NCBI GenBank assembly: GCA_938004065.1
Contig: CALKWM010000038.1
Location: forward strand, 2,466 to 66,465
Direction of reading: 5' to 3'
Length of the DNA stretch: 64,000 nt
Origin: an uncultured bacterium
GTDB lineage: Bacteria; Patescibacteriota; JAHJAL01
Position 1 is the first letter of the stretch; each line of letters opens with the position of its first letter. Positions 7,684-64,000 of the stretch are shown here, one piece after another. A program made the translations under genes and the position numbers. The notes under the pieces are model-generated. The model was not told where the DNA came from. It did not search any database and saw nothing but the letters and a program-made list of their open reading frames with translations.

Positions 7684-10524
7684 CTATTTTCTGGATAGTA
7701 TTTTCGCCAGGTATTGTCCGGTATATGATCGCTTTACCTTGGCTACTTCTTCCGGTGTACCGGTGGCCACAATTTCGCCACCCTCATCACCACCTTCCGG
7801 GCCCAGATCAATGATGTAGTCAGCCACTTTGATCATATCTAAATTATGTTCGATCATGAGAATAGAGTTACCACGACGAACAAGTTTGTTTAAGATTTTG
7901 ATCAAATTTTCGACATCGGCAAAATGCAAACCGATAGTTGGTTCATCCAAGATATAAAGTGTTTTACCGGTGGCACGACGAGCCAGTTCGGTAGATAATT
8001 TGATCCTTTGCGCCTCGCCACCGGAGAGAGTGTTGGCCGGCTGACCAAGTTGCAGATATCCCAACCCCACATCAACCAGAATTTTGAGTTTTTTCTCAAG
8101 GGCAGGAATGTTTTTGAAAAAAATATGCGCTTCTTCGGCGGTCATTTCCAGCACTTCGGAGATATTTTTTCCCTTGTAGTAAATATCCAGGGCTTCCGGA
8201 TTGTAACGGTGCCCGCCACATTCCGGGCAGGTGATATATACATCGGGCAAAAAATGCATTTCAATTTTGATACTGCCGTCCCCTTTACAGTGTTCGCATC
8301 GTCCGCCTTTGACGTTGAACGAAAACCGGCCGGCTTTGTAACCGCGCATTTTGGCCTCGGGGGTAGAAGCAAATAAATCTCGAATCAAGGTAAATGAGCC
8401 GGTATAGGTAGCCGGGTTGGAGCGGGGAGTGCGTCCAATCGGGCTTTGGTCGATGGTGATCACTTTGTCCAAATTTTCCAGGCCTTTGATTTCCCGGTGC
8501 TCACCGGCGGGTTGTTTGGAACGATGAAATTCACGAGCCAACTGTTTGGCCAGTATTTTATGAATCAGAGTAGATTTTCCCGATCCGGAGACGCCGGTTA
8601 CGCAAACAAATTGTCCGAGAGGAATTTTGACGTTGACGTTTTTCAGGTTATGTTCGTTGGCCCCGACAATTTCCAAATATTTGTCCGTAACCTTGCGACG
8701 GCCGGTAGGCACTTCAATCTTTTTTTTGCCGGATAGATACTGTCCGGTGAGAGAGTTTTTGTTTTTCATGACTTCTTTGGGAGTACCTTGCGCCATCAAT
8801 TCACCACCATGCTTGCCGGCGCCGGGCCCGATGTCAATCAAATGATCGGCGGCCAACATGGTTTCTTCGTCATGTTCAACAACGATAATCGAGTTGCCAA
8901 TATCGCGTAATTCTTTGAGCGACTCGATCAATTTACTATTGTCGCGTTGGTGCAAACCGATCGATGGTTCGTCGAGGATATACATGACTCCGGTTAGCAT
9001 CGAACCGATTTGGGTGGCCAGGCGAATACGTTGAGCTTCACCGCCGGACAGAGTATTGGCCGAGCGATGCAAAGTTAGATATCCCAGACCAACATTTTCC
9101 AAAAATCCCAATCTCTCGCCGATTTCTTTGATGATCGGGTTCGATATTTTGCTGTTTTCACGCGAAAATTTCAAGCCGGCAAAAAATTTGATTAGTTCAC
9201 GAACATTCATTTCAGTTACTTCGATGATATTTCTATCATCGATCGTAACCGCCAAAGATTCTATCCGTAAACGTTTACCACCACATTCCGGGCAGGTTTG
9301 TTCAATCATGTATTTTTCGATATCGCTACGCACGTATTCACTGCCTGTTTCCCGATACATTCTCATCAGTTGCGGAATGACGCCTTCGAAAGTTGTTTCG
9401 TATTCCTTGACTTTACCGTATGGTGAGGGATTGGTGACCAAATATGTTTTGCTACCGGTTCCGTGTAAAACAATTTGGATGTGTTCCGGTTTCATATCGG
9501 CAATCGGTGTATCGATATCAAATTTGTTGGCTTCGGCAACCGCCATCAGTATCCGCATATGCCAATTCTGGCGACCGGAAGTTTTGCTCCACGGACCGAT
9601 ACCGCCTTCGGCAATAGTCAATTTCGGGTTGGGAAAAATCATATTTTCATCAATTTCCTGTCTAATACCCAAACCGCTACAACCACTGCAGGCGCCTTGA
9701 GGATTGTTGAAAGAAAAAATGCGGGGGTTGATCTCGGGCAGGTTGATTCCGCACTCGGCACAGGCAAATTGTTCACTAAAGGCATCAATTTTTCCGGTAT
9801 CGGGTTGCAAGACATGAATTAAACCATTGCCATAATTGAGAGCCGTTTCCAATGATTCAACCAGACGGGAACGAAAATCAATGTCTTTTTTGTCGATTTG
9901 CAAACGGTCAACCACAATTTCGATCGTGTGCTTTTTTTGTTTATCGAGAACGATAGATTCCGATAAGTCGCGAATCTCGCCATTGACTCGCACCCGCACA
10001 AATCCGGCTTTTTTGATTTCAGCGAAAGTATTTTTGTGCTCGCCTTTTTGGGCGATAACCAAAGGTGACAGAATGATTATTTTAGTTTTGTTTTGAATGC
10101 TTTCAATCTGATCGGCGATTTGACCGACGGTTTGTGAAGAAATCGGTTTGTGACATTTGGGACAATGCGGGATACCCACCCGGGCAAACAAAAGACGCAA
10201 ATAATCATATATTTCCGTCACGGTTCCCACGGTGGAGCGAGGATTGGAACTGGCTGATTTTTGATCGATAGAAATAGCCGGCGATAATCCTTCAATTTTA
10301 TCCATATCCGGTTTTTCCATAATGCCTAAAAATTGCCTGGCATATGCGGATAGAGACTCGACGTATCGACGTTGACCTTCGGCGTAAATAGTATCAAAAG
10401 CCAATGAAGATTTGCCCGATCCGGAGATACCGGTAATCACAACCAATTCATTTTTGGGAATTACCAAATCGATATTTTTGAGATTGTGTTCTCTGGCTCC
10501 CTTGATAGTAATTTTGTCAATCAT
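7684..10524 (-). CDS. uvrA: excinuclease ABC subunit A
   Basis: 946 aa with two ABC ATPase modules ([23 protein letters not shown]), zinc-finger Cys clusters and LSGGEAQR signature motifs. Confidence 0.97.
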
Positions 10525-10819
10525 TTTTTTTTATAAAAAAATTTATTAAATATATTTTGCGAAATGGCCCATGAAAAAGTCGAAACGTTGTATATTTTTT
10601 AAAACTTGCGGTCGGAAATGATAGATGTTTTTTAGCTAAAACATAAAAATTGTAGCAACATTTTTGCTTTTTTTCAAGGGTAGAAAAAAAGAAGATTTGA
10701 TAATGATTTTTTTTCAAATACCGCTTTGAAGGAAATAAAATGGTTAAATTGTTAAATTGTTATGCAATAATTTTCTCAACCATTTAGCCATTTAACAAAT
10801 TATATTTCTTAAGTATTTC

Positions 10820-11566
10820 ATGCCTCATAATAAACAAATTTTTATTATAATAGAATTAATGATGAAAAAAGTGCACAAAAAATACAAACGTAAATATCGA
10901 CAAAAGGGTAGCTGGTTAAACTATTTGGTCTGGTCGTTGATCGGACTGGCGCTGTTACCGGTTTTATTGGCTGTTTTGGTGGCAACGTTTATGCTCGTTA
11001 GGCAGATTCCTTTTTTATCAACCACGATTTGGTATATAGTGTTAGGATTGGTGCTTTACACTTTTTTTCATACTTTTGTATATCAACCGGTGGGATTGTA
11101 TGTAATGGCACATGAATTTACTCATGCGGCGTTTGCTTTGTTGTTTGGCTATAGAGTAAAGAAAATCAAAATCTCAACCGGTGGCGGATATGTGGAGATG
11201 TCGGAATCAAATTTTGTGATTGACTTGGCGCCATATTTTTTTCCACTTTATACCGTGATATTAACCGCCGCTTTCTACGGACTGGACAGGTTGTTTGATT
11301 GGAGTAATTTTTACTGGTTGTTTTTTATTTTCGTCGGAATATTTCTCTCTTTTCATTTTCTATCAAACTGGGACGTTCTAAAAATTGGACAGCCCGATCT
11401 AAATTCGACGGGGAAAATTTTCGCGGTAATTTTTGTGATAATTTCCAATTTGTTGGTGATAAATGTTTTGATGGTGATTTTTTTCATTGATTATATAAAT
11501 TTAAATACAATTTTTGATAATTTTTATCATGCCGGTAGATTTGTTTACGGCTTGTTAGAAAGTTGA
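10820..11566 (+). CDS. polytopic membrane protein with HExxH motif (putative membrane zinc metalloprotease-like)
   Basis: MAHEFTHAAF motif inside a multi-TM protein. Family uncertain. Confidence 0.4.
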   Translation: MPHNKQIFIIIELMMKKVHKKYKRKYRQKGSWLNYLVWSLIGLALLPVLLAVLVATFMLVRQIPFLSTTIWYIVLGLVLYTFFHTFVYQPVGLYVMAHEFTHAAFALLFGYRVKKIKISTGGGYVEMSESNFVIDLAPYFFPLYTVILTAAFYGLDRLFDWSNFYWLFFIFVGIFLSFHFLSNWDVLKIGQPDLNSTGKIFAVIFVIISNLLVINVLMVIFFIDYINLNTIFDNFYHAGRFVYGLLES

Positions 11567-11671
11567 AAAATAGAATGTTTTTTGGTAAGTTTAGCTTACA
11601 AATGTCCTTGTTAAAATGTATTTAAAATGAGGATTTTTGCATTTTAAAAAGAAGGAGGAGCAATATATAAA

Positions 11672-12145
11672 GTGGCAAATCTATTTGAGGGACGGGCTTT
11701 GAGTTACAAGAAATCTTGTAAAGCAAAAAGACCTGGAGAAAAACAGGTGGTAAATTTATTTATCACCGAATTCGGAAAGATGAAAAAACTGACCGCAGTG
11801 GATTTAAATTTGATAGAGTATTTGTACGGCACCTACGAAAAGCGTGGGGCAGAAATCTATCTGCGGGAAGTGGTGACTGCTGATTCGGTATCCAGGATAT
11901 CTATCGGGCGAATGTATTTGATCGTCGAGCTAGTCAAAAAATATGATTTAGCTGAGGTTTTTGAGTTATTGTTAGATAAATTAAAAACCTTTATCGCCCG
12001 CAAAATTTGCACTTATAGTAAAAAGATAAAAGGAATTTTTATGGTACTAAAGAAAACTGAACTTGATATCAAAAAATTTATTGATAATATCGAGTTTAGA
12101 TTTTCTGATCATTCGCAGTTGGCCTACAGGTTAGCTGCAATATAA
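11672..12145 (+). CDS. hypothetical protein
   Basis: 157-aa ORF with no recognisable motif. Confidence 0.3.
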   Translation: MANLFEGRALSYKKSCKAKRPGEKQVVNLFITEFGKMKKLTAVDLNLIEYLYGTYEKRGAEIYLREVVTADSVSRISIGRMYLIVELVKKYDLAEVFELLLDKLKTFIARKICTYSKKIKGIFMVLKKTELDIKKFIDNIEFRFSDHSQLAYRLAAI

Positions 12146-12165
12146 AAAAGAAGAAAGGAAAAAAC

Positions 12166-12369
12166 ATGAAAAAGGGGGACGAGTTTGAACGAAGATCTAA
12201 TTTATTAAAAGAAATTGAAAAGATAAAGCCGGAGTATGCTGAAAAGTTTCTTGATCCAGCCAATGAAAGTCCTTTACATTTATTTTGTAAATGTGAGGCA
12301 ATGGACAGATTGGAAAAACTGGCAGATCGCTATAATTATTGTTTGAAAAAAAGCGATTTGCCCAATTAA
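12166..12369 (+). CDS. hypothetical small protein
   Basis: 67-aa ORF followed by a strong terminator at 12404-12433. Confidence 0.3.
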   Translation: MKKGDEFERRSNLLKEIEKIKPEYAEKFLDPANESPLHLFCKCEAMDRLEKLADRYNYCLKKSDLPN

Positions 12370-12403
12370 AAATATATTTAAGAAGACAGTATCTAATAAA
12401 ATA

Positions 12404-12433
12404 CTGTCTTTTGCCTTTTATGATACAAGGTGG
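12404..12433 (+). terminator. rho-independent terminator (gacagtatctaataaaatactgtctttt)
   Basis: 8-bp perfect stem plus T-run downstream of the 12166-12369 ORF. Confidence 0.7.
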
Positions 12434-12439
12434 TATAAT
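12411..12439 (+). promoter_or_regulatory. sigma70-like promoter for thrS leader: TTGCCT -17 bp- TGgTATAAT (extended -10)
   Basis: Seen in sequence. -35 TTGCCT at 12411-12416, TG-extended -10 TATAAT at 12434-12439. Confidence 0.55.
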
Positions 12440-12446
12440 TTTTTTG

Positions 12447-12700
12447 ACGGAACAAGTAGTTTGAAATAAGTATTTAACAGGGAATGAAAGCCCACGAGAC
12501 TGGAAGCTTTCTAGATACATTTCAAATGAAACCAACCATGATTAAAGTTTCAAGTATCAAAACCCGATAAACAAGTAAGTATCGATACTTTGTACAACAA
12601 TATGTAAGTGATAAGTGCCCTGTTACAAGGGAATTTGAGTGGAACCGCGGGATTTATCTCGTCTCAAAATGAATTTTTTGGGATGTTTTTTTAAAATCTA
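12447..12700 (+). promoter_or_regulatory. candidate T-box riboswitch leader upstream of thrS
   Basis: AATTTGAGTGGAACCGCGGGA at 12633-12653 matches the T-box consensus AAUUAGGGUGGNACCGCGG. Long (~400 nt) leader between promoter and thrS start. thrS is a classic T-box-regulated gene. Confidence 0.45.
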
Positions 12701-12851
12701 AAATATTAAATATAAAAAATCAAAAATTTCTTAAGTAGCTATTTTTTATAAACTATAATATACAGATTAAATGGTTATGTTTGGAAATAATAATTGAAAA
12801 ATGCATGTTTTTTAATTTTCTAATTGGAAAATATTATTTAGGAGAAATATT

Positions 12852-14624
12852 ATGAGTAAACTAACAAAAGAACAAAAAGAAGAGCAACTCCACGCCATGC
12901 GGCATTCGCTGGCGCACATCATGGCGGAGGCGGTGCAAGAGATGTTTCCGGAGGTCCAATTCGGGATTGGCCCGGTGATTGACAATGGATTTTATTATGA
13001 TTTCGATCTGCCCAGAACACTCGTGCCGGAAGATTTGCCGTTAATTGAAAAAAAGATGGCGGAGATTGTCAAACAGAAAAACCGATTTGAACGACAGGAA
13101 GTGAGCAAAAAAGAAGCATTGCAATTCTTTCAAAAAGCCAAAGAGCCGTACAAACTGGAACTGATTGCGGAATTGGAAGACGGGGAAATCACTTTGTTTA
13201 GAAGCGGTAAATTTGTCGATCTCTGCAAAGGTCCCCATGTGGAAAATACCGGACAAGTCGGTGCATTTAAACTGACTCATATCGCCGGGGCATACTGGCG
13301 AGGGGACGAGAAAAACAAGATGTTGCAGAGAATTTATGGTGTAGCTTTTGCGGATAAAAAAGAATTGAAGAAATACTTGAATATGGTGGAGGAGGCGAAG
13401 AAGCGAGATCATCGAAAATTGGGCAAGGAATTGGATTTGTTTTGTTTTTCTGATTTAGTCGGTCCGGGACTGCCACTTTATACACCCAGGGGAACGATTA
13501 TGAAAGATGAGCTGCAAAAGCATATTGAAAATATATGTAGAAAATATGGTTTTCAAAAAGTCTCCGCACCAGCTTTTGCCAAAGAAGAACTTTTTCAGAT
13601 ATCGGGACATGCTCAAAAATTTGCCGACGAACTTTTTCATGTTAGTTCAAAGAAAAAACATGATTTTGTTTTAAAACCGGTACAATGTCCACATCATACT
13701 CAGATATATGCCTCCAAAATCCGTTCATATAAAGATTTGCCGATTCGCTACATGGAATCTGACAAACAATATCGTGCTGAAAAAACCGGTGAAGTGGGGG
13801 GATTGTCAAGAGTGTATGCTATTACTATTGAAGACGGGCATTCTTTCTGCCAGGTTGAACAGGTCAAAGATGAAGTAGTAGGCATGGTAAACATTATTAA
13901 GGAATTTTACACTTCACTGGGGTTATGGAGGACTTTGAAAGTTTATTTATCGGTTAGAGATTATGAACATCCGGAAAAATACATTGGCACACCGGAAGAT
14001 TGGGATACTTGTGAGTCAATGTTGGCTGATGTTTGCGAAGAACTAAACTTGCAGGCGGAGCGTCAAGAAGGGGAAGCGGCGTTGTATGGGCCGAAAATTG
14101 ATTTTATGTTCAGAGATGCCCTGGGAAAAGAAATCCAAATACCTACAGTTCAATTGGATTTTGCCACTCCCAAAAGATTTAATTTGAAATATATCAATTC
14201 CGAGGGCAATGAAGTGCCACCGGTAATGGTGCACCGGGCAGTTTTGGGCTCCTACGAAAGATTTCTCGTTATGTTAATCGAGCATTTTGCCGGAATATTT
14301 CCGTTGTGGCTGGCGCCGGAGCAAGTGAGGGTGATACCGGTTTCAGCGGAAAAACATTTGGAATACGCAAAATCAATTGCCGAGGAACTTAGAAAAAATA
14401 ATTTCCGAGTGGAGTTGGATGATAGCGCCGAGTCGGTGGGTAAAAAAATCCGCAATGCCGATTTGATGAAAGTAAATTACATGATTATCGTTGGTGACAA
14501 AGATGTCGAAGCTGATACAGTTTCTGTTAGACCCTTGCGTGGCGAAGACATGGGAGCAATGAAATTGCAGAAATTCATTGAAATCATCGCAAAAGAACGT
14601 GATGAGAAGATTATCAAGAATTAA
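12852..14624 (+). CDS. thrS: threonyl-tRNA synthetase (lacks N-terminal TGS domain)
   Basis: HSLAHIMAEAV editing-domain motif, class II catalytic core, C-terminal anticodon-binding domain. 590 aa. Confidence 0.95.
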   Translation: MSKLTKEQKEEQLHAMRHSLAHIMAEAVQEMFPEVQFGIGPVIDNGFYYDFDLPRTLVPEDLPLIEKKMAEIVKQKNRFERQEVSKKEALQFFQKAKEPYKLELIAELEDGEITLFRSGKFVDLCKGPHVENTGQVGAFKLTHIAGAYWRGDEKNKMLQRIYGVAFADKKELKKYLNMVEEAKKRDHRKLGKELDLFCFSDLVGPGLPLYTPRGTIMKDELQKHIENICRKYGFQKVSAPAFAKEELFQISGHAQKFADELFHVSSKKKHDFVLKPVQCPHHTQIYASKIRSYKDLPIRYMESDKQYRAEKTGEVGGLSRVYAITIEDGHSFCQVEQVKDEVVGMVNIIKEFYTSLGLWRTLKVYLSVRDYEHPEKYIGTPEDWDTCESMLADVCEELNLQAERQEGEAALYGPKIDFMFRDALGKEIQIPTVQLDFATPKRFNLKYINSEGNEVPPVMVHRAVLGSYERFLVMLIEHFAGIFPLWLAPEQVRVIPVSAEKHLEYAKSIAEELRKNNFRVELDDSAESVGKKIRNADLMKVNYMIIVGDKDVEADTVSVRPLRGEDMGAMKLQKFIEIIAKERDEKIIKN

Positions 14625-42290: not shown

Positions 42291-42713
42291 TTATTTTTCT
42301 ATTATGTGCTTTTTGACAAACTTTTCAATCGCTGAAACTGTTTCTTCTTTCATATCAGGTGGACTGCTCGCAATCCAAACGGCGAAATTATAGAACTCAA
42401 CATTGTCGACTTGCAACCATTTGCCATTTTTTTCCAAAAATACCAAGAGTGCAGTGATAGCGATTCGTTTGTTGCCATTTTGAAACGGATGATTTTTTAT
42501 CATTAGATAAAACAATATTGCCGCTTTTCCTGCCAATCCTTTGTATAATGGCTTTTTATCGAATTTTTGAAATGGTACCAGAAGGCAACTTTCAAGAATC
42601 TTGGGGTAACGAGTGAAAAAGTCCGGAATTGGCTCCTGATAATCCATGTACTTCTTGGCGATATAAAAAGCGATTTTTTCTACCTCGGCCAATTTTATGG
42701 ATTTGATTGCCAC
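42291..42713 (-). CDS. doc: Fic/Doc-family toxin (death-on-curing)
   Basis: HPFQNGNKRIAITA matches the Doc variant of the Fic motif H-x-F-x-x-G-N-K-R. Confidence 0.75.
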   Translation of the reverse strand: MAIKSIKLAEVEKIAFYIAKKYMDYQEPIPDFFTRYPKILESCLLVPFQKFDKKPLYKGLAGKAAILFYLMIKNHPFQNGNKRIAITALLVFLEKNGKWLQVDNVEFYNFAVWIASSPPDMKEETVSAIEKFVKKHIIEK

Positions 42714-54889: not shown

Positions 54890-57523
54890 CTAAATATTAA
54901 AATTTTTGTTTTCATAGTTATTCATCCAAATTACATCCATATTTTGTTGATGGTAATTATTGAAATATGAAAATCTTTTTGGTTCTGGGAAAATATATTT
55001 CTCATTAATAAGAGCAATTCTTTCTTTGAGAGCTTCTTCAAAAGCACCACCGGTGCGATTGGTTCTTATTTGAGGATTTTCTGAAGTGAGAATTTTATCG
55101 ATACCGTTATCGGTGGCAAAAATCGATAGTTGTTTTATCAGTTCGTCAAAGAGTAGTTTTTCATCGATTTTAAAGAGAAATGTGCTGCAAGGATTTAGTG
55201 AGGCGGTAAGAATTTTTTGGCTATTTTCCTCGTAGTAATGGAGCAACACTAATCCTTGACAATTTTTTGTTTGCGAGTCATGTAAAGCCATTTGGAAATA
55301 ATTTGACATTTCCCACATATTTTCCGGTCTTTTTTCATTTCCTTCGTATGATAGAGGGTTGTCTCCGGATACGCATACACCGCCAACAGACCGAGTATGG
55401 GCGGAGGTATGATTTTTGGTGATATAACAATCGAGTTTTTTTAGTTGAGTAACTCGATCACTTGTAGTTTCTATGGGTTGAAATTTGGCAATTTCCTGAT
55501 CGATAAAATTTATCTCTTCCAAAAATATATCGTGAAATAATTGGGTTAAATAATTTGCAAAAAGATGCTGATCATAAGATTTATTGCCAATATTTTTTTC
55601 GAGGTCCAGATATTCTGTCAAATTTAATTCCCCCAAATGGATTGAAGCGGGATCGATTTTTTCCTTTTTTAGAATTTCCAGGGCTTTGGCAGCTTTGTTT
55701 TGTTCATTGGAAATAATACCGGCAATTGCTTTGCCTTTTTGGTCCAGGATGATTTCTTTGGTCTCATTCGTTTTAAAAAGTTTAGTTTTTTTGTTTTTTA
55801 ATACGTTTTCGATTTTCACCAATACATGAACACCGCCAATCTTGTCAATTTGCATTTTGTTTATTTTGTCCTGCATTAGTATTTCTTGTTCTTGACCGGA
55901 TATTTTCTGGTAGAAATGAGTTAAAATCTTTTCGAATACTTTATTTTCGAGGGCTTTGGTAACGATTTCTCTCTGGGTATCTTTGATTTTATCGGTGAAA
56001 AACTCTCTTATTTCCAATAGATAAAAATATTCCGGACTGGTTGATTGGTTTACTCTGTCTCGTGTGCCTTGCAAGTACTCCTCAATCACAGGAAAATGGG
56101 CTATTTGGTATTCGATAATGATTTGTTTTATTTCCGACGTGGTAATATCGGGATTCAGTTGAGCTTCCAGTAGAAGGACCAGAATCTTATCTTCATTGGT
56201 ACATAGTTTATCTTGAGAAATATTAAATTTATTAAAAATCGAATCAATTTTATGGCTAAACAAGGTTAGCTTTTCGTCGGAATTAAATTTGGTAATCTCA
56301 GATACGGGGTGTTTGATCTGGTATTCCAAAGTGGATAATTTATTTTTATCAAGTTTAACATTTTCTTTGACAACCATTTTATTACCAGGCATCAATTTGA
56401 TAGGATAATTATCTCTGATTGAAAATATTGATAAATCGGCTGTGCGGTCCGGGCAACTTTCATTGCTTTTAAAGCTGCTATATTGTGAATTTTGAGGATA
56501 GAGAGCTTTGATGATATCTTGGTAGTATTTTTCGTCGATAATGTTGGGATCTTGTTTGGAAGGAGAGGTAAATTTTTCTTTTTTCTGGTTAATGTCGTCA
56601 ATAAAACCCTGGAGAAGAATGGGGTCGTTCTGTTTTCTCAGATTGTGATAATCTTTTAGAACTTCACCATAGACAACTCCCGTATCTTGGTGACAGGATA
56701 GTAAACTGTATTCTGTTTCTAGATATTTAACCGCTTTTTTGTCGAATTTTGACAAATGCAACATAATTTCATGAGGTTCTCTTTCTTGCATTATTACTTG
56801 AAGTGACTCAATACCCAGATTTTTAAATTTGGGATAGTATTCAAGGTTAAAAATATTTAATGAGGTGTGCCGGGAGATTTTGATGGCAACACTATCTGAT
56901 AACCAGGGCATTTTTTGCAGTAAGTTAGTTACCAAAAAATATTTATCAATCCCATCGATCAGACCGGCAATGTAGTCATTGATTTTGACAATTAATTGGT
57001 GAGACAATTTTTGCATTTGATCAGCATTCAATACATGAGTAATATACATTATGCCTTCATTGTTTTTGTCACTTTCGAGAATTTGGTTGGCAATGTAGTT
57101 TATATCACAGCCCGAAAGATCATCGGCAATTTTTAAAAGATAATTTATTTTGTTAGCTGCAAGTAATTTATCAACTACAAGATGATGAAATACAGGGTCG
57201 ATTTCTTTGGCAAAACATGCCAAATGCAGAATCAAACCTTTTTCATACATTTTTTCAATAATTGTTGTTGGATCAGGGATATTAAATTGGTCTAAATGTC
57301 TGGCCAACTCACTTCCCAAGCCCGAGTCAATGAGGTGGAGGGCGTATTTCGTATGCATATTTTGGGGCAATTCGGAAACAAAAATTGAGTCAAAATCTTC
57401 AGAATTTTCGATTTTTTCCAGCCATTTTTGCTGATTGATTTTGTCTTGAAAAGCCGAATTTTCGTCGGGTAATTTTTTCGAATCTGATTCAGAAGGTCTA
57501 TATTGGTCAAAATTCTGGTTCAT
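54890..57523 (-). CDS. large cytoplasmic hypothetical protein (877 aa, predominantly alpha-helical, Cys/His-containing C-terminal region)
   Basis: Long uninterrupted ORF, no signal peptide. No recognisable domain. C-terminal segment CYITKNHTSAHTRSVGGVCVSGD... Confidence 0.5.
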   Translation of the reverse strand: MNQNFDQYRPSESDSKKLPDENSAFQDKINQQKWLEKIENSEDFDSIFVSELPQNMHTKYALHLIDSGLGSELARHLDQFNIPDPTTIIEKMYEKGLILHLACFAKEIDPVFHHLVVDKLLAANKINYLLKIADDLSGCDINYIANQILESDKNNEGIMYITHVLNADQMQKLSHQLIVKINDYIAGLIDGIDKYFLVTNLLQKMPWLSDSVAIKISRHTSLNIFNLEYYPKFKNLGIESLQVIMQEREPHEIMLHLSKFDKKAVKYLETEYSLLSCHQDTGVVYGEVLKDYHNLRKQNDPILLQGFIDDINQKKEKFTSPSKQDPNIIDEKYYQDIIKALYPQNSQYSSFKSNESCPDRTADLSIFSIRDNYPIKLMPGNKMVVKENVKLDKNKLSTLEYQIKHPVSEITKFNSDEKLTLFSHKIDSIFNKFNISQDKLCTNEDKILVLLLEAQLNPDITTSEIKQIIIEYQIAHFPVIEEYLQGTRDRVNQSTSPEYFYLLEIREFFTDKIKDTQREIVTKALENKVFEKILTHFYQKISGQEQEILMQDKINKMQIDKIGGVHVLVKIENVLKNKKTKLFKTNETKEIILDQKGKAIAGIISNEQNKAAKALEILKKEKIDPASIHLGELNLTEYLDLEKNIGNKSYDQHLFANYLTQLFHDIFLEEINFIDQEIAKFQPIETTSDRVTQLKKLDCYITKNHTSAHTRSVGGVCVSGDNPLSYEGNEKRPENMWEMSNYFQMALHDSQTKNCQGLVLLHYYEENSQKILTASLNPCSTFLFKIDEKLLFDELIKQLSIFATDNGIDKILTSENPQIRTNRTGGAFEEALKERIALINEKYIFPEPKRFSYFNNYHQQNMDVIWMNNYENKNFNI

Positions 57524-62111: not shown

Positions 62112-62894
62112 TTAACTACAATAATTTCGAATACAGCGGAAATATCGCAAACTACTATCGGTTTTGGTCACGGTACTTGATCCGCCAAAACTGAAATTGG
62201 TCGTGAAGGCGGTATTGACATCATTTTGATACGAACTCCAATAATCATTGGGTTGAAAACCACCTCCAGCAGAAACGCGATTGGTAAACAATGTACCAAG
62301 TTGAGTTTGTGCCGGTAAGAACCAGTCGCTATATCCATATTTGATTAAATTGTAACAATGATCGGCAGCCGGATTGGTCGGCGGATTATTGTTATATAAC
62401 CAGGTAGTGAGAGTTTCACCATCAGTAGGATCGCCGCCTGGCCATTCATTGTAGCCAACCGCACTAGCCCATTGTTTGGTCACCAGATCAATACCGCTAC
62501 AAGCCGGTTCATTTGTAGAGTTGGCACAACCGCTTGGCATTGCTACCATACAATTGGCGTATTTATAACCACCACCGCAGTTGGTACCGACGGCATCACC
62601 GGCAGTACATTCACAAGTTGGACCGGTACAGGTCGGACCACATGTAACATTGGCCAATCCACCGGCAGTACATTTATCATTGAAAGCGTTCCATTCCAAA
62701 TCAGTGTTGTTTGGCACAAAGTAGTCATACGAACTGTTATTGACTACTTGTCGGCTACGTTCGGTAATTACCGTGGTGGTCCCGTGGTTGGCACGATAAT
62801 AAGTAGCGGCATAGGCGATCAGAATCGGAATCGTAATCAAACAAAGCAGACTTAAAGCAACTATTAAAAATGTTTTTGTTTTGAACTTGAACAT
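62112..62894 (-). CDS. secreted Cys-rich protein with DUF1566 (Lcl C-terminal)-like domain
   Basis: N-terminal signal anchor. Cys-rich segment TCGPTCTGPTCECT. C-terminal DWFLPAQTQLGTLF...NDYWSS...YFRCIRN resembles DUF1566. Confidence 0.5.
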   Translation of the reverse strand: MFKFKTKTFLIVALSLLCLITIPILIAYAATYYRANHGTTTVITERSRQVVNNSSYDYFVPNNTDLEWNAFNDKCTAGGLANVTCGPTCTGPTCECTAGDAVGTNCGGGYKYANCMVAMPSGCANSTNEPACSGIDLVTKQWASAVGYNEWPGGDPTDGETLTTWLYNNNPPTNPAADHCYNLIKYGYSDWFLPAQTQLGTLFTNRVSAGGGFQPNDYWSSYQNDVNTAFTTNFSFGGSSTVTKTDSSLRYFRCIRNYCS

Positions 62895-62917
62895 AACTTA
62901 TTTTTTATTTTTTATGT

Positions 62918-63985
62918 TTATTTATTTTTCAATGTTTCAACTTCTTGTTTCAATTGATCAATTTGGGTTTGTTGTTCTTGAATCGCTTTCAACAATACCG
63001 CTGTCATGTTGCCGTATTCCATCCCTTTCATGCCAGTGCTTGGATTGGTAGTTACAAGCTCCGGATAATACTTCTCAACATCTTGGGCGATAAAACCTAT
63101 TTCCTTGTCGCCGCCGGTTTTCCAATTAAAGGTAACCGGTTGAATTTGTTTAACTTTTTCTAAAGTATTATCAGCCAATGGTTGAATATTGGTTTTCAAT
63201 CGTTGGTCGGAACTATAGATGAAAGAAGCAGCTTGCACGTCACCATTAACATCTAGTTCTTGTCCTGGATTTGTCATCCCAATCCCAACCATGCCGCCAT
63301 TGGGATTCAATGTGAGTGCAGTAGTTGTGACGCCGTTATAAACCGATTGAATCCAACCATAATACGGACTTGCGCCATTATTGTATCCCATCGCCAAACG
63401 ATATTGGTTTCCTCCACCAGTAACCAACAAAGAACCAAGTTCACCTGACGGTGAGGTGCTGGCTCCAGCAATATGAGTAGTAGTCAATGGTCCTGTAGTG
63501 CCAATCCCGAAATTACCGCCAGATGGATTAATAGTAACGGGCACAGAAGCTGCGTCATTAAGCATACCTTGTAGCCAGGTAGAACCATTGGACAAAGTTC
63601 CCATCGCTAAGCCATAGCCGTTATCAGATCCACGTAAATACAGTGATGAATTAGCTACACTGACACTAGAGGGAACAGTTCTGAGAATGCTAACTTTGGA
63701 AGATAATGTTCCAGTAGCACCGATACCAACATTCCCGGAAGAATCAACCATTATGTCGTCTTTGGAATTTGTACGACCTATACCAAAACTATTAGTGGCT
63801 CCGCTCCAACGATTACCGATATACCAATCGCTAGCGGTATCTTTGAAATGTATATTTTGGTCATAACTGGCACCACCTGTACTCTCGATTAATATTGAAG
63901 CATCTGCAGAACTTCTATTGAGGTGCAAACCGGCCGCTGGCGTAACTGTTCCTATACCAACGTTACCATTCCATCTCCAAGTCAT
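62918..63985 (-). CDS. tail-fibre-like Gly-rich beta-helical protein with C-terminal peptidase S74 intramolecular-chaperone domain (5' end probably beyond window)
   Basis: SDQRLKTNIQPLADNTLEKV...GFIAQDVEKYYPELV...MEYGNMTAVLLKAIQEQQ matches the S74 chaperone-of-endosialidase domain. Reading frame open to the window edge. Confidence 0.65.
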   Translation of the reverse strand: MTWRWNGNVGIGTVTPAAGLHLNRSSADASILIESTGGASYDQNIHFKDTASDWYIGNRWSGATNSFGIGRTNSKDDIMVDSSGNVGIGATGTLSSKVSILRTVPSSVSVANSSLYLRGSDNGYGLAMGTLSNGSTWLQGMLNDAASVPVTINPSGGNFGIGTTGPLTTTHIAGASTSPSGELGSLLVTGGGNQYRLAMGYNNGASPYYGWIQSVYNGVTTTALTLNPNGGMVGIGMTNPGQELDVNGDVQAASFIYSSDQRLKTNIQPLADNTLEKVKQIQPVTFNWKTGGDKEIGFIAQDVEKYYPELVTTNPSTGMKGMEYGNMTAVLLKAIQEQQTQIDQLKQEVETLKNK

Positions 63986-64000
63986 TAGATTAATACCTTG

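Follow-up and report, generated by a model that had tools for sequence, protein, structure and literature searches.

A candidate attachment locus encoding a MAT-like S74 fibre, a lectin-like protein and Pam-like subunits in a probable Patescibacteria bacterium

The right end of a 64,000-nt stretch of DNA from an uncultured bacterium (contig CALKWM010000038.1 of assembly GCA_938004065.1, positions 2,466 to 66,465; hereafter the window) appears to carry a chromosomal block of genes for cell-surface attachment. Its members are a fibre resembling the mosaic adhesive trimers (MATs) of Bdellovibrio, a lectin-like protein and a Pam-like giant. We give this reading, together with a host in the Candidate Phyla Radiation (CPR, or Patescibacteria), a probability of roughly 0.7. 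CPR bacteria make up a large share of bacterial diversity, and the cultivated ones live attached to other microbes; type IV pili and the recently reported Pam pili aside, little is understood of how they recognize their hosts. The locus suggests that phage-like MAT fibres, which Bdellovibrio uses on its prey, also occur in probable CPR bacteria, where they seem to exchange cassettes between close strains and to be linked genetically to Pam-like subunits and Lcl_C modules. The individual domains are known, and the value of the locus lies in context and linkage rather than in a new kind of protein; NCBI's name for such proteins is 'tail fiber domain-containing protein'. A full-text literature search found CPR terms together with S74 or MAT terms only in one sentence of a preprint on Pam pili.

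Three minus-strand genes stand head to tail at the end of the window (Table 1). The reading frame of the fibre is open through base 64000, so the gene is cut by the window edge and the ATG at 63985 is an internal codon, Met333. The same DNA is present in NCBI assembly GCA_036848155.1 (contig DAIUKQ010000001.1, 326,524 bp, in the opposite orientation) and in ENA and Logan contigs. These identical contigs give the complete fibre gene of 687 codons (L001 7914-9977 and L003 10001-12064; product P0001), of which residues 1-327, comprising the signal peptide, the N-domain and the first two repeats, fall outside the window. In transcription order, the co-directional block consists of a 3514-aa LamG/propeller giant, the 687-aa fibre, a 260-aa lectin-like protein and a 1474-aa LamG/Ig protein, separated by 95, 23 and 36 nt; a 127-nt gap then leads to an unrelated-looking cytoplasmic protein of 877 aa. 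Promoter-like sites did not exceed shuffled expectation, and no terminator-like site was found within the intergenic gaps. An earlier first-pass annotation, made from the window alone, had placed a DUF1566-like and an S74 gene immediately downstream of a giant protein. Both genes are adjacent on the minus strand as it described, but they lie upstream of that 1474-aa 'giant' in transcription order, and a larger one, the 3514-aa protein, sits just beyond the window. Its suggestion of extending the contig yielded the 5' end of the S74 gene, the signal peptide and the neighbouring LamG gene.

All four genes recur, with their order kept, in a relative whose fibre is 56% identical. Identity there is 50-70% for the giant, 54% for the 1474-aa protein and 87% for the lectin-like protein, which indicates that the last is constrained far more tightly than the proteins encoded around it. 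Nearly all named homologues closest to the fibre and to the giant come from Parcubacteria, Berkelbacteria, Peregrinibacteria, Moranbacteria, Nealsonbacteria or the 'Patescibacteria group'. A CPR host also fits the Pam-like domains described below, since domains of the Pam type are described as specific to the CPR (bioRxiv 10.64898/2026.03.03.709456).

The fibre displays the sequence-level features of the MAT family, with a distant match for the N-domain. As described by Caulton et al. (2024), this family provides 21 surface fibres in B. bacteriovorus, built from a signal peptide, a conserved beta-rich N-domain of ~130 aa, a trimeric beta-helical shaft with capping loops, and a C-terminus that is either an S74 domain with the motif SDxxxK or another adhesive tip (PMC10769870). 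Our fibre begins with a Sec-type signal peptide (MKNLIKKISLAIGIGLLFLSSLSPAFA, cleaved before SV, as judged by inspection of the full gene). Directly after it comes an N-domain of ~110 aa that matches the NCBIfam model Bdello_MAT_N (E 7e-6), as do 34 of 40 homologous N-domains (best E 6.8e-10). Structure prediction returned a confident all-beta sandwich for this domain (predicted local distance difference test, pLDDT, 86). Fold searches of the model against the PDB and viral models gave generic Ig-like likeness only, with no hit at E <= 1e-3, in agreement with the remark of the MAT authors that the MAT N-domain has no PDB homologue (PMC10769870). The whole stretch from N-domain to S74 is made of MAT-type capping-loop modules: a regular expression located six G-x-VGIGT-x-x-P-x-x-x-L repeats, starting at residues 194, 260, 339, 416, 489 and 563, in a protein with 12.9% Gly. 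A search of solved structures paired the shaft with Bd2133 of Bdellovibrio (8ond, E 1.9e-5) and with 8ojn, a 'cell wall surface anchor family protein' (E 2.3e-4); both matches run through repeated G-x-VGIGT-x-x-P-x-x-x-LHV motifs.

The first-pass annotation had seen a C-terminal S74 domain with an SDQRLK motif, and Pfam bears this out: PF13884 (Peptidase_S74) matches the part of the fibre within the window at 74.1 bits (E 1.1e-20; gathering score 22) over profile positions 1-58 of 58, followed by a coiled-coil-like C-terminal tail. The Ser-Lys dyad is intact in S591-D-Q-R-L-K596 (codons 63209-63211 and 63194-63196), and the S-D cleavage site, whose conservation was to be checked, is kept as SDxxxK in 76 of the 120 best homologues. 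S74 self-cleavage chemistry is established for the K1F endosialidase (3GW6) and T5 pb1 (4UW8). The S74 segment of our fibre is predicted to be released after trimerisation; S74 autocleavage has been shown experimentally for the Bdellovibrio fibre Bd3182 (PMC10769870).

Taken together, these features suggest that the fibre is a CPR member of the MAT kind with a putative role in attachment. With Bd3182 and the S74 subgroup it shares a signal peptide directly before a beta-rich, distantly MAT-like N-domain, a capping-loop shaft and a C-terminal S74 with SDxxxK; with the family at large, a mosaic make-up in which S74 and non-S74 tips both occur, and chromosomal surface-fibre genes in a bacterium that lives on other cells. 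It differs in its probable CPR host, Supplementary Table S3 of the MAT study listing members from other phyla with no CPR entry (PMC10769870). Since CPR bacteria have no outer membrane (bioRxiv 10.64898/2026.03.03.709456), any anchor must differ as well. The fibre is also shorter, 687 aa against a typical ~1000 aa, and is set between LamG giants, beside a separate Lcl_C protein and a Pam-like protein.

Variants of the fibre differ block by block. The Logan variant P0002 is 100% identical to P0001 over residues 1-210, drops to 14-35% over residues 260-400, recovers to 93-95% over residues 420-460, drops again to 20-30% over residues 480-560 and reaches 80-92% in the S74 domain. Block-wise variation is also seen in P0003, P0004 and P0005. 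The variable blocks sit between capping-loop motifs, and the second lies immediately before the cleavage site, which would make it the distal tip of the matured fibre. The locus thereby yields candidates, open to testing, for what sets host range in organisms that are difficult to grow. More distant relatives vary in size and tip: 44 complete metagenomic proteins with the N-domain range from 139 to 2338 aa, and 13 of them end in S74. Scanning JGI metagenomes with an N-domain alignment of 12 sequences gave 277 relatives. IMG/VR scans with the whole fibre and with the N-domain alignment returned no relative, a contrast that is moderately informative only, given the ~80-fold difference in size and the different scan patterns.

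The small protein encoded next to the fibre has an N-terminal signal sequence (ending in ILIAYA, before AT) and 12 Cys in its mature region, all invariant in the five other members of its six-member cluster. Along profile positions 5-117 of 117, its C-terminal domain matches PF07603 (Lcl_C) at E 5.9e-6, but the 27.0 bits fall short of the gathering score, 34.9. The domain is also matched by NCBIfam adhesin_Lcl (E 1.9e-5), PHROG 4245 (E 3.5e-10) and the C-terminal domain of Legionella Lcl (PDB 8q4e, E 3e-4). A word-indexed search recovered only the protein's own cluster; an exhaustive HMMER search gave 3281 relatives at E <= 1e-3. Ten of these (E 1e-13 to 1e-38 to the query) were scanned, and all ten exceed the cut-off for Lcl_C, with 41.9-135 bits, which carries the assignment over to the 260-aa protein through transitive homology. 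Of the first-pass description as a secreted, Cys-rich, DUF1566-like protein, the signal sequence and the cysteines stand; a PF07603 match above the gathering score is a property of the relatives and not of the protein itself. We regard it as probably a divergent Lcl_C-like domain placed after a Cys-rich segment, and not as a curated family member.

The 260-aa protein and Legionella Lcl are both secreted surface proteins, and their C-terminal domains match (8Q4E; PMC11162425). Unlike Lcl, the 260-aa protein lacks a collagen-like stalk and an N-terminal coiled coil, carries 12 Cys where the Lcl C-terminal domain has no disulfides (PMC11162425), and stands alone instead of heading its own fibre. 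We rejected Lcl orthology, as the protein scores 23.4 bits against the equivalog cut-off of 500 (NF046116) and has no collagen repeats. Targeting of the gene by a diversity-generating retroelement was likewise rejected, given its high conservation and a search that turned up no template-like repeat.

Fusions in other lineages argue that an Lcl_C-like module works with fibres of this kind. Of the 149 relatives that match the 260-aa protein best, eight begin with a MAT-like N-domain and three end in S74. Pfam-confirmed architectures comprise N-domain plus Lcl_C (P0305, P0349, P0229 and P0316), N-domain plus collagen plus Lcl_C (P0263) and Lcl_C plus S74 (P0233), and the gene context of P0305 is cellular.

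On its other side, the block shows a likeness to Pam pili, a donor-strand-exchange type for which all reports come from CPR bacteria (Troman et al. 2026; bioRxiv 10.64898/2026.03.03.709456). Pam operons encode membrane-anchored, PapD-like chaperones, PamC and PamD; a protein described as 'tail fibre-like' is central in their neighbourhoods (bioRxiv 10.64898/2026.03.03.709456). From N- to C-terminus, the 1474-aa protein comprises a PamT-like module (SxNYxI three times, residues ~30-95), an OmpL47-type barrel, a LamG domain (533-685), Ig-like repeats and a Pam-pilin-C-like domain (1329-1474). It looks like a PamT-type subunit of ~230 aa that has received an insertion of ~1240 aa (OmpL47-type barrel, LamG and four Ig-like repeats of ~100 aa each). 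The GloVer protein, which the first-pass annotation had tied to this cluster, does belong with it: after seven GloVer repeats (TIGR03803, 258 bits) comes a C-terminal region of ~200-330 aa that is paralogous to the module at the C-terminus of the 1474-aa protein (44% identity over 203 aa). The whole resembles a passenger domain joined to a pilin-like module.

The same association recurs at other loci. Of 76 loci, 21 encode a protein with the PamT-like N-module (S-x-N-Y-x-I three times) on the strand of the fibre gene and within eight genes of it; among the 33 loci that span 8 kb or more, 14 do so. As a control, the PamT-like hidden Markov model (HMM) was run on six-frame open reading frames (ORFs) of the window and eight other loci (~200 kb), where it matched only the 1474/1477-aa seed proteins. 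Small, uninterrupted PamT-type proteins of 227-234 aa (PamT E 1e-12 to 3e-17) adjoin MAT-like fibre genes in Pam-like operons at L013, L025, L026 and L044, and are themselves adjacent to secreted proteins of 305-327 aa with a C-terminal transmembrane (TM) helix. One of the latter, at L026, scores 28.1 against Pfam WxLIP_PGBD (gathering score 27.3), a hint of kinship between Pam-like operons and the WxL/Csc surface-protein clusters of Firmicutes. The window thus resembles the Pam systems of Ca. Mycosynbacter amalyticus and other CPR bacteria (bioRxiv 10.64898/2026.03.03.709456) in the PamT-like start of the 1474-aa protein, the Pam_pilin_C-like ends of that protein and of the GloVer protein, the signal peptides on all of them and the tail-fibre-like gene alongside. 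It departs from them in its scores, which all fall under curated cut-offs, in the LamG/Ig insertion, and in having no PamC/PamD chaperone, PamR or ATP-synthase neighbourhood in the window.

The first-pass annotation had favoured a cellular fibre over a phage one unless phage genes turned up just beyond the window. Neither the 64-kb window nor the 12 kb beyond it yielded a capsid, portal, terminase, tape-measure, baseplate or sheath gene; those 12 kb hold only the 5' part of the fibre gene and the 3514-aa LamG giant. A cellular origin also agrees with the MAT-like N-domain and shaft, with the Sec-type signal peptides on the fibre, the lectin-like, the 1474-aa and the GloVer proteins, and with the housekeeping context. 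Genes in the window include those for SerRS, ThrRS, UvrA, a penicillin-binding protein (PBP), MiaB/MiaA-type enzymes, TrmD, iPGM and a cluster of Wzm/Wzt, glycosyltransferase and Wzy_C proteins; the window has no tRNA genes. G+C content at third codon positions (GC3) is 0.36-0.46 in the block and 0.37-0.49 in housekeeping genes. Recent horizontal transfer as the source of the block's raised G+C was rejected, since the excess lies in codon positions 1 and 2 (the proteins are Gly/Ser/Thr-rich) and GC3 is native. A distant homologue of the fibre in a complete Peregrinibacteria genome lies between genes for FtsH, a PBP, MscS and AdoHcyase, and the S74 homologue P0008 (L011, a JGI contig of 1.2 Mb) lies among LamG, Gly-rich and Fib_succ_major surface proteins.

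We propose the following course of events. The fibre, bearing a signal peptide, would be exported by Sec. Its C-terminal S74 would serve as intramolecular chaperone, nucleating the trimerisation of the shaft, and, as the motif suggests, would then cut itself off at Ser591 through the Ser591/Lys596 dyad, exposing the distal tip. The beta-sandwich N-domain, by analogy with the MAT family, may hold the fibre on the producer cell, and the shaft modules between the capping loops, cassette-variable among strains, may carry binding specificity. The 260-aa neighbour could supply a strongly conserved C-type-lectin-like (Lcl_C) module for binding or trimerising. The fibre would then be a CPR counterpart of the MAT fibres that serve prey recognition in Bdellovibrio, and most likely serves to recognize a host cell or surface, or to adhere to it, together with the Pam-like pilus subunits encoded next to it.

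Several observations weigh against this attachment reading or loosen parts of it. Trimerisation, self-cleavage, adhesion and surface display of the fibre are all deduced from sequence, and the probable placement of the host in the CPR depends on named homologues. The fibre's Bdello_MAT_N score of 26 bits is distant from the curated 60 of what is a Bdellovibrio subfamily model, with profile positions 3-78 of 162 aligned. Pam-like scores are also low: the last 146 residues of the 1474-aa protein reach 33.6 bits against CPR_Pam_pilin_C (cut-off 55; E 3.7e-8, model positions 3-148 of 148), the GloVer C-terminus reaches 27.5 bits against the same model, and residues 12-106 of the 1474-aa protein reach 29.7 bits against CPR_pilus_PamT (cut-off 240). 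Among the window's unannotated ORFs, no PamC/PamD-type chaperone turned up, nor any other Pam component. As for the lectin-like protein, an HMM built narrowly from its close relatives detected no Lcl-like neighbour in the 76 other fibre loci, small stand-alone homologues occur in a Planctomycete-like context without a fibre neighbour, and the AlphaFold model, made from six near-identical sequences, is unusable (pLDDT 38). The link of the fibre to Pam-like subunits and to a detachable lectin module is a putative one. Shaft repeats also occur in 22 cyanophage and pelagiphage tail-fibre records, at 24-30% identity, and the shaft and chaperone are likely to be of phage origin.

With phage S74 fibres and tailspikes (3GW6, 4UW8, 6F45), our fibre has the S74 domain and its Ser-Lys dyad in common. 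A rival reading would make the genes the tail-fibre part of a tailocin or a prophage, or what is left of a phage. In its favour, tail-fibre families head the PHROG matches, phage fibres are where S74 is best known, cyanophage and pelagiphage fibres have the shaft repeats, and the search for phage genes reached only 12 kb past the window, to within the 3514-aa gene. We nevertheless consider a phage-borne module highly improbable: signal peptides mark the fibre and all neighbours with seen N-termini, phage hallmark genes are missing from the 64 kb to one side and the 12 kb to the other, and homologues sit among housekeeping genes. The fibre also carries a MAT-like N-domain of cell type, absent from the IMG/VR scans, in place of a baseplate-binding N-terminus. 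A further phage precedent would make the S74 protein an enzyme, a tailspike-like depolymerase that degrades capsule or wall polymer of the host. S74 chaperones were first found on endosialidases, and CPR parasites must breach host envelopes, but Pfam, NCBIfam and PDB searches found no catalytic domain in the fibre, and capping-loop modules fill the whole region between its N-domain and S74, so that this too seems very unlikely.

Two other proposals retain attachment and differ over how the parts fit together. After fibre maturation in phages S16 and T2, gp38 reportedly caps the gp37 long tail fibre. The 260-aa protein could similarly be a separately encoded tip adhesin that caps the fibre once S74 is released. 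Its gene follows the fibre stop after 23 nt, as a small adhesin-type gene follows gp37, and the arrangement is kept in the relative. The chaperone region of the fibre aligns with SSDRRIK in the tip of S16 gp37 (6f45), Lcl_C forms the tip of fibres with the same N-domain, and the Lcl C-terminal domain is itself trimeric (PMC11162425). The high conservation of the lectin-like protein is awkward for a docking pair whose fibre partner swaps its distal modules, unless docking goes through the conserved last repeat; the other S74 fibre genes examined are not followed by a small gene of this kind, and the structure model gives no help. We judge such capping unlikely. Somewhat less doubtful, but still improbable in our view, is a narrower form of the attachment reading in which the fibre and the lectin-like protein are physical parts of a Pam-type donor-strand-exchange pilus, with the 1474-aa protein as tip subunit and the fibre, the lectin-like protein or both docking to that subunit or to the pilus base. 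In its favour are the Pam-like modules at both ends of the 1474-aa protein, the two-part proteins of 227-234 aa beside MAT-like fibre genes, the linkage in 21 loci and the tail-fibre-like neighbour of pam operons (bioRxiv 10.64898/2026.03.03.709456). Every Pam match, though, is under its curated cut-off, no chaperone gene was found in the window, neither the fibre nor the 3300 seen residues of the 3514-aa giant contain a Pam-like domain, and gene linkage does not amount to physical contact.

Within the favoured attachment reading, the locus suggests a candidate to partner the MAT N-domain, for which the Bdellovibrio work left the anchor open. More speculatively, MAT-type fibres and Pam-type pili might form one host-capture apparatus of CPR bacteria, in which the triple SxNYxI module docks the MAT N-domain, the 1474-aa protein tethers or carries the fibre, and the Lcl_C-like protein is a lectin head, detachable here but in other lineages fused to the fibre; as a whole we think this a long shot. 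In fibre neighbours, the triple SxNYxI module precedes a Pam pilin C-domain in some cases and giant adhesins in others, and some other downstream neighbours have a C-terminal membrane anchor and, by eye, a similar S-x-x-Y pattern that the HMM did not detect.

Table 1 Coordinates of the fibre, its neighbours and their domains (window positions, except where a locus is named)
Feature	Position	Strand	Basis or remark
Fibre gene, last 360 codons (residues 328-687) and stop	62918..64000	-	Open ORF; full gene on identical contigs; Pfam PF13884
Capping-loop repeat 3, NGNVGIGTVTPAAGLHL, from residue 339	63917..63967	-	Regular expression; alignment to Bd2133 (8ond) and 8ojn chain
Capping-loop repeat 4, SGNVGIGATGTLSSKVSI, from residue 416	63686..63736	-	Regular expression
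Capping-loop repeat 5, GGNFGIGTTGPLTTTHI, from residue 489	63467..63517	-	Regular expression
Capping-loop repeat 6, GGMVGIGMTNPGQELDV, from residue 563; last before cleavage site	63245..63295	-	Regular expression
Putative S74 intramolecular chaperone / self-cleaving peptidase segment, residues 591-687	62921..63211	-	Pfam match residues 591-644; motif located
Secreted Cys-rich protein, 260 aa, with C-terminal Lcl_C/DUF1566-like (putatively C-type-lectin-like) domain	62112..62894	-	Starts 23 nt past fibre gene
Cys-rich segment of 260-aa protein, residues 75-133, 10 conserved Cys	62496..62672	-	Within a module of ~165-185 aa common to many relatives
Lcl_C/DUF1566-like domain of 260-aa protein, residues 158-256	62127..62423	-	Pfam sub-threshold; 8q4e; ten relatives above cut-off
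Secreted protein gene, 1474 aa	57651..62075	-	36 nt downstream of lectin-like gene; Pfam, NCBIfam, local HMM
GloVer-repeat secreted protein, 738 aa	48864..51080	+	NCBIfam Gloeo_Verruco 258 bits
Secreted TM proteins, 305-327 aa, beside PamT-like genes	L026 6660-7634; L013 3627-4610; L044 5633-6550		Candidate Pam chaperones

The 3514-aa giant beyond the window contains several LamG domains and a run of propeller-like repeats; 3300 of its residues were seen, the first ~214 not having been recovered. About nine tandem repeats of ~45 aa ('YQIWTA...DG..WS', propeller- or BNR-like) precede the LamG modules (L003 ~600-1600), and NCBIfam marks four TafC-like stretches. Searching the contigs of representative genomes with this protein gave a single match, a Nanoarchaeota LamG protein. 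At the other end of the block, the 877-aa protein (54890-57523, minus strand) has no signal peptide and no Pfam or NCBIfam match, is rich in Lys, Ile and Glu, and is encoded at a GC of 0.34. Its gene adjoins the block in the same species too (L002), and we place it probably outside the surface block.

Further into the window, a large glycan cluster at ~27500-48600 encodes a 1048-aa protein with multiple glycosyltransferase domains, methyltransferases, a Wzm/Wzt ABC exporter with Wzt_C, a PMT_2-like protein and a Wzy_C-TPR protein. It adjoins the surface-protein genes and could glycosylate their products or build a surface polymer. The sole mobile-element-like feature seen is a toxin-antitoxin pair at 42291-42713 (minus strand) and among the neighbouring genes to ~43900, which consists of a DOC/Fic-family toxin (TIGR01550, 54 bits) and a small helix-turn-helix partner and is not a phage structural feature.

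Other fibre loci have neighbours of their own. At L011 (~10001-13060), P0008 lies among large proteins with weak or faint matches to the Class_III (archaeal-type pilin) signal, and a 1594-aa protein with a weak match to Fib_succ_major, a family we take to be related to DUF1566, adjoins it. At L057, L070 and L071, a protein of ~200-220 aa is encoded directly after the S74 fibre gene, at gaps of -1 to 6 nt. These proteins form one family by BLAST, are not detected by the SxNY HMM, and run from a signal peptide through an N-terminal segment of S-x-x-Y type to a TM helix at the C-terminus; they could be membrane anchors for the fibre.

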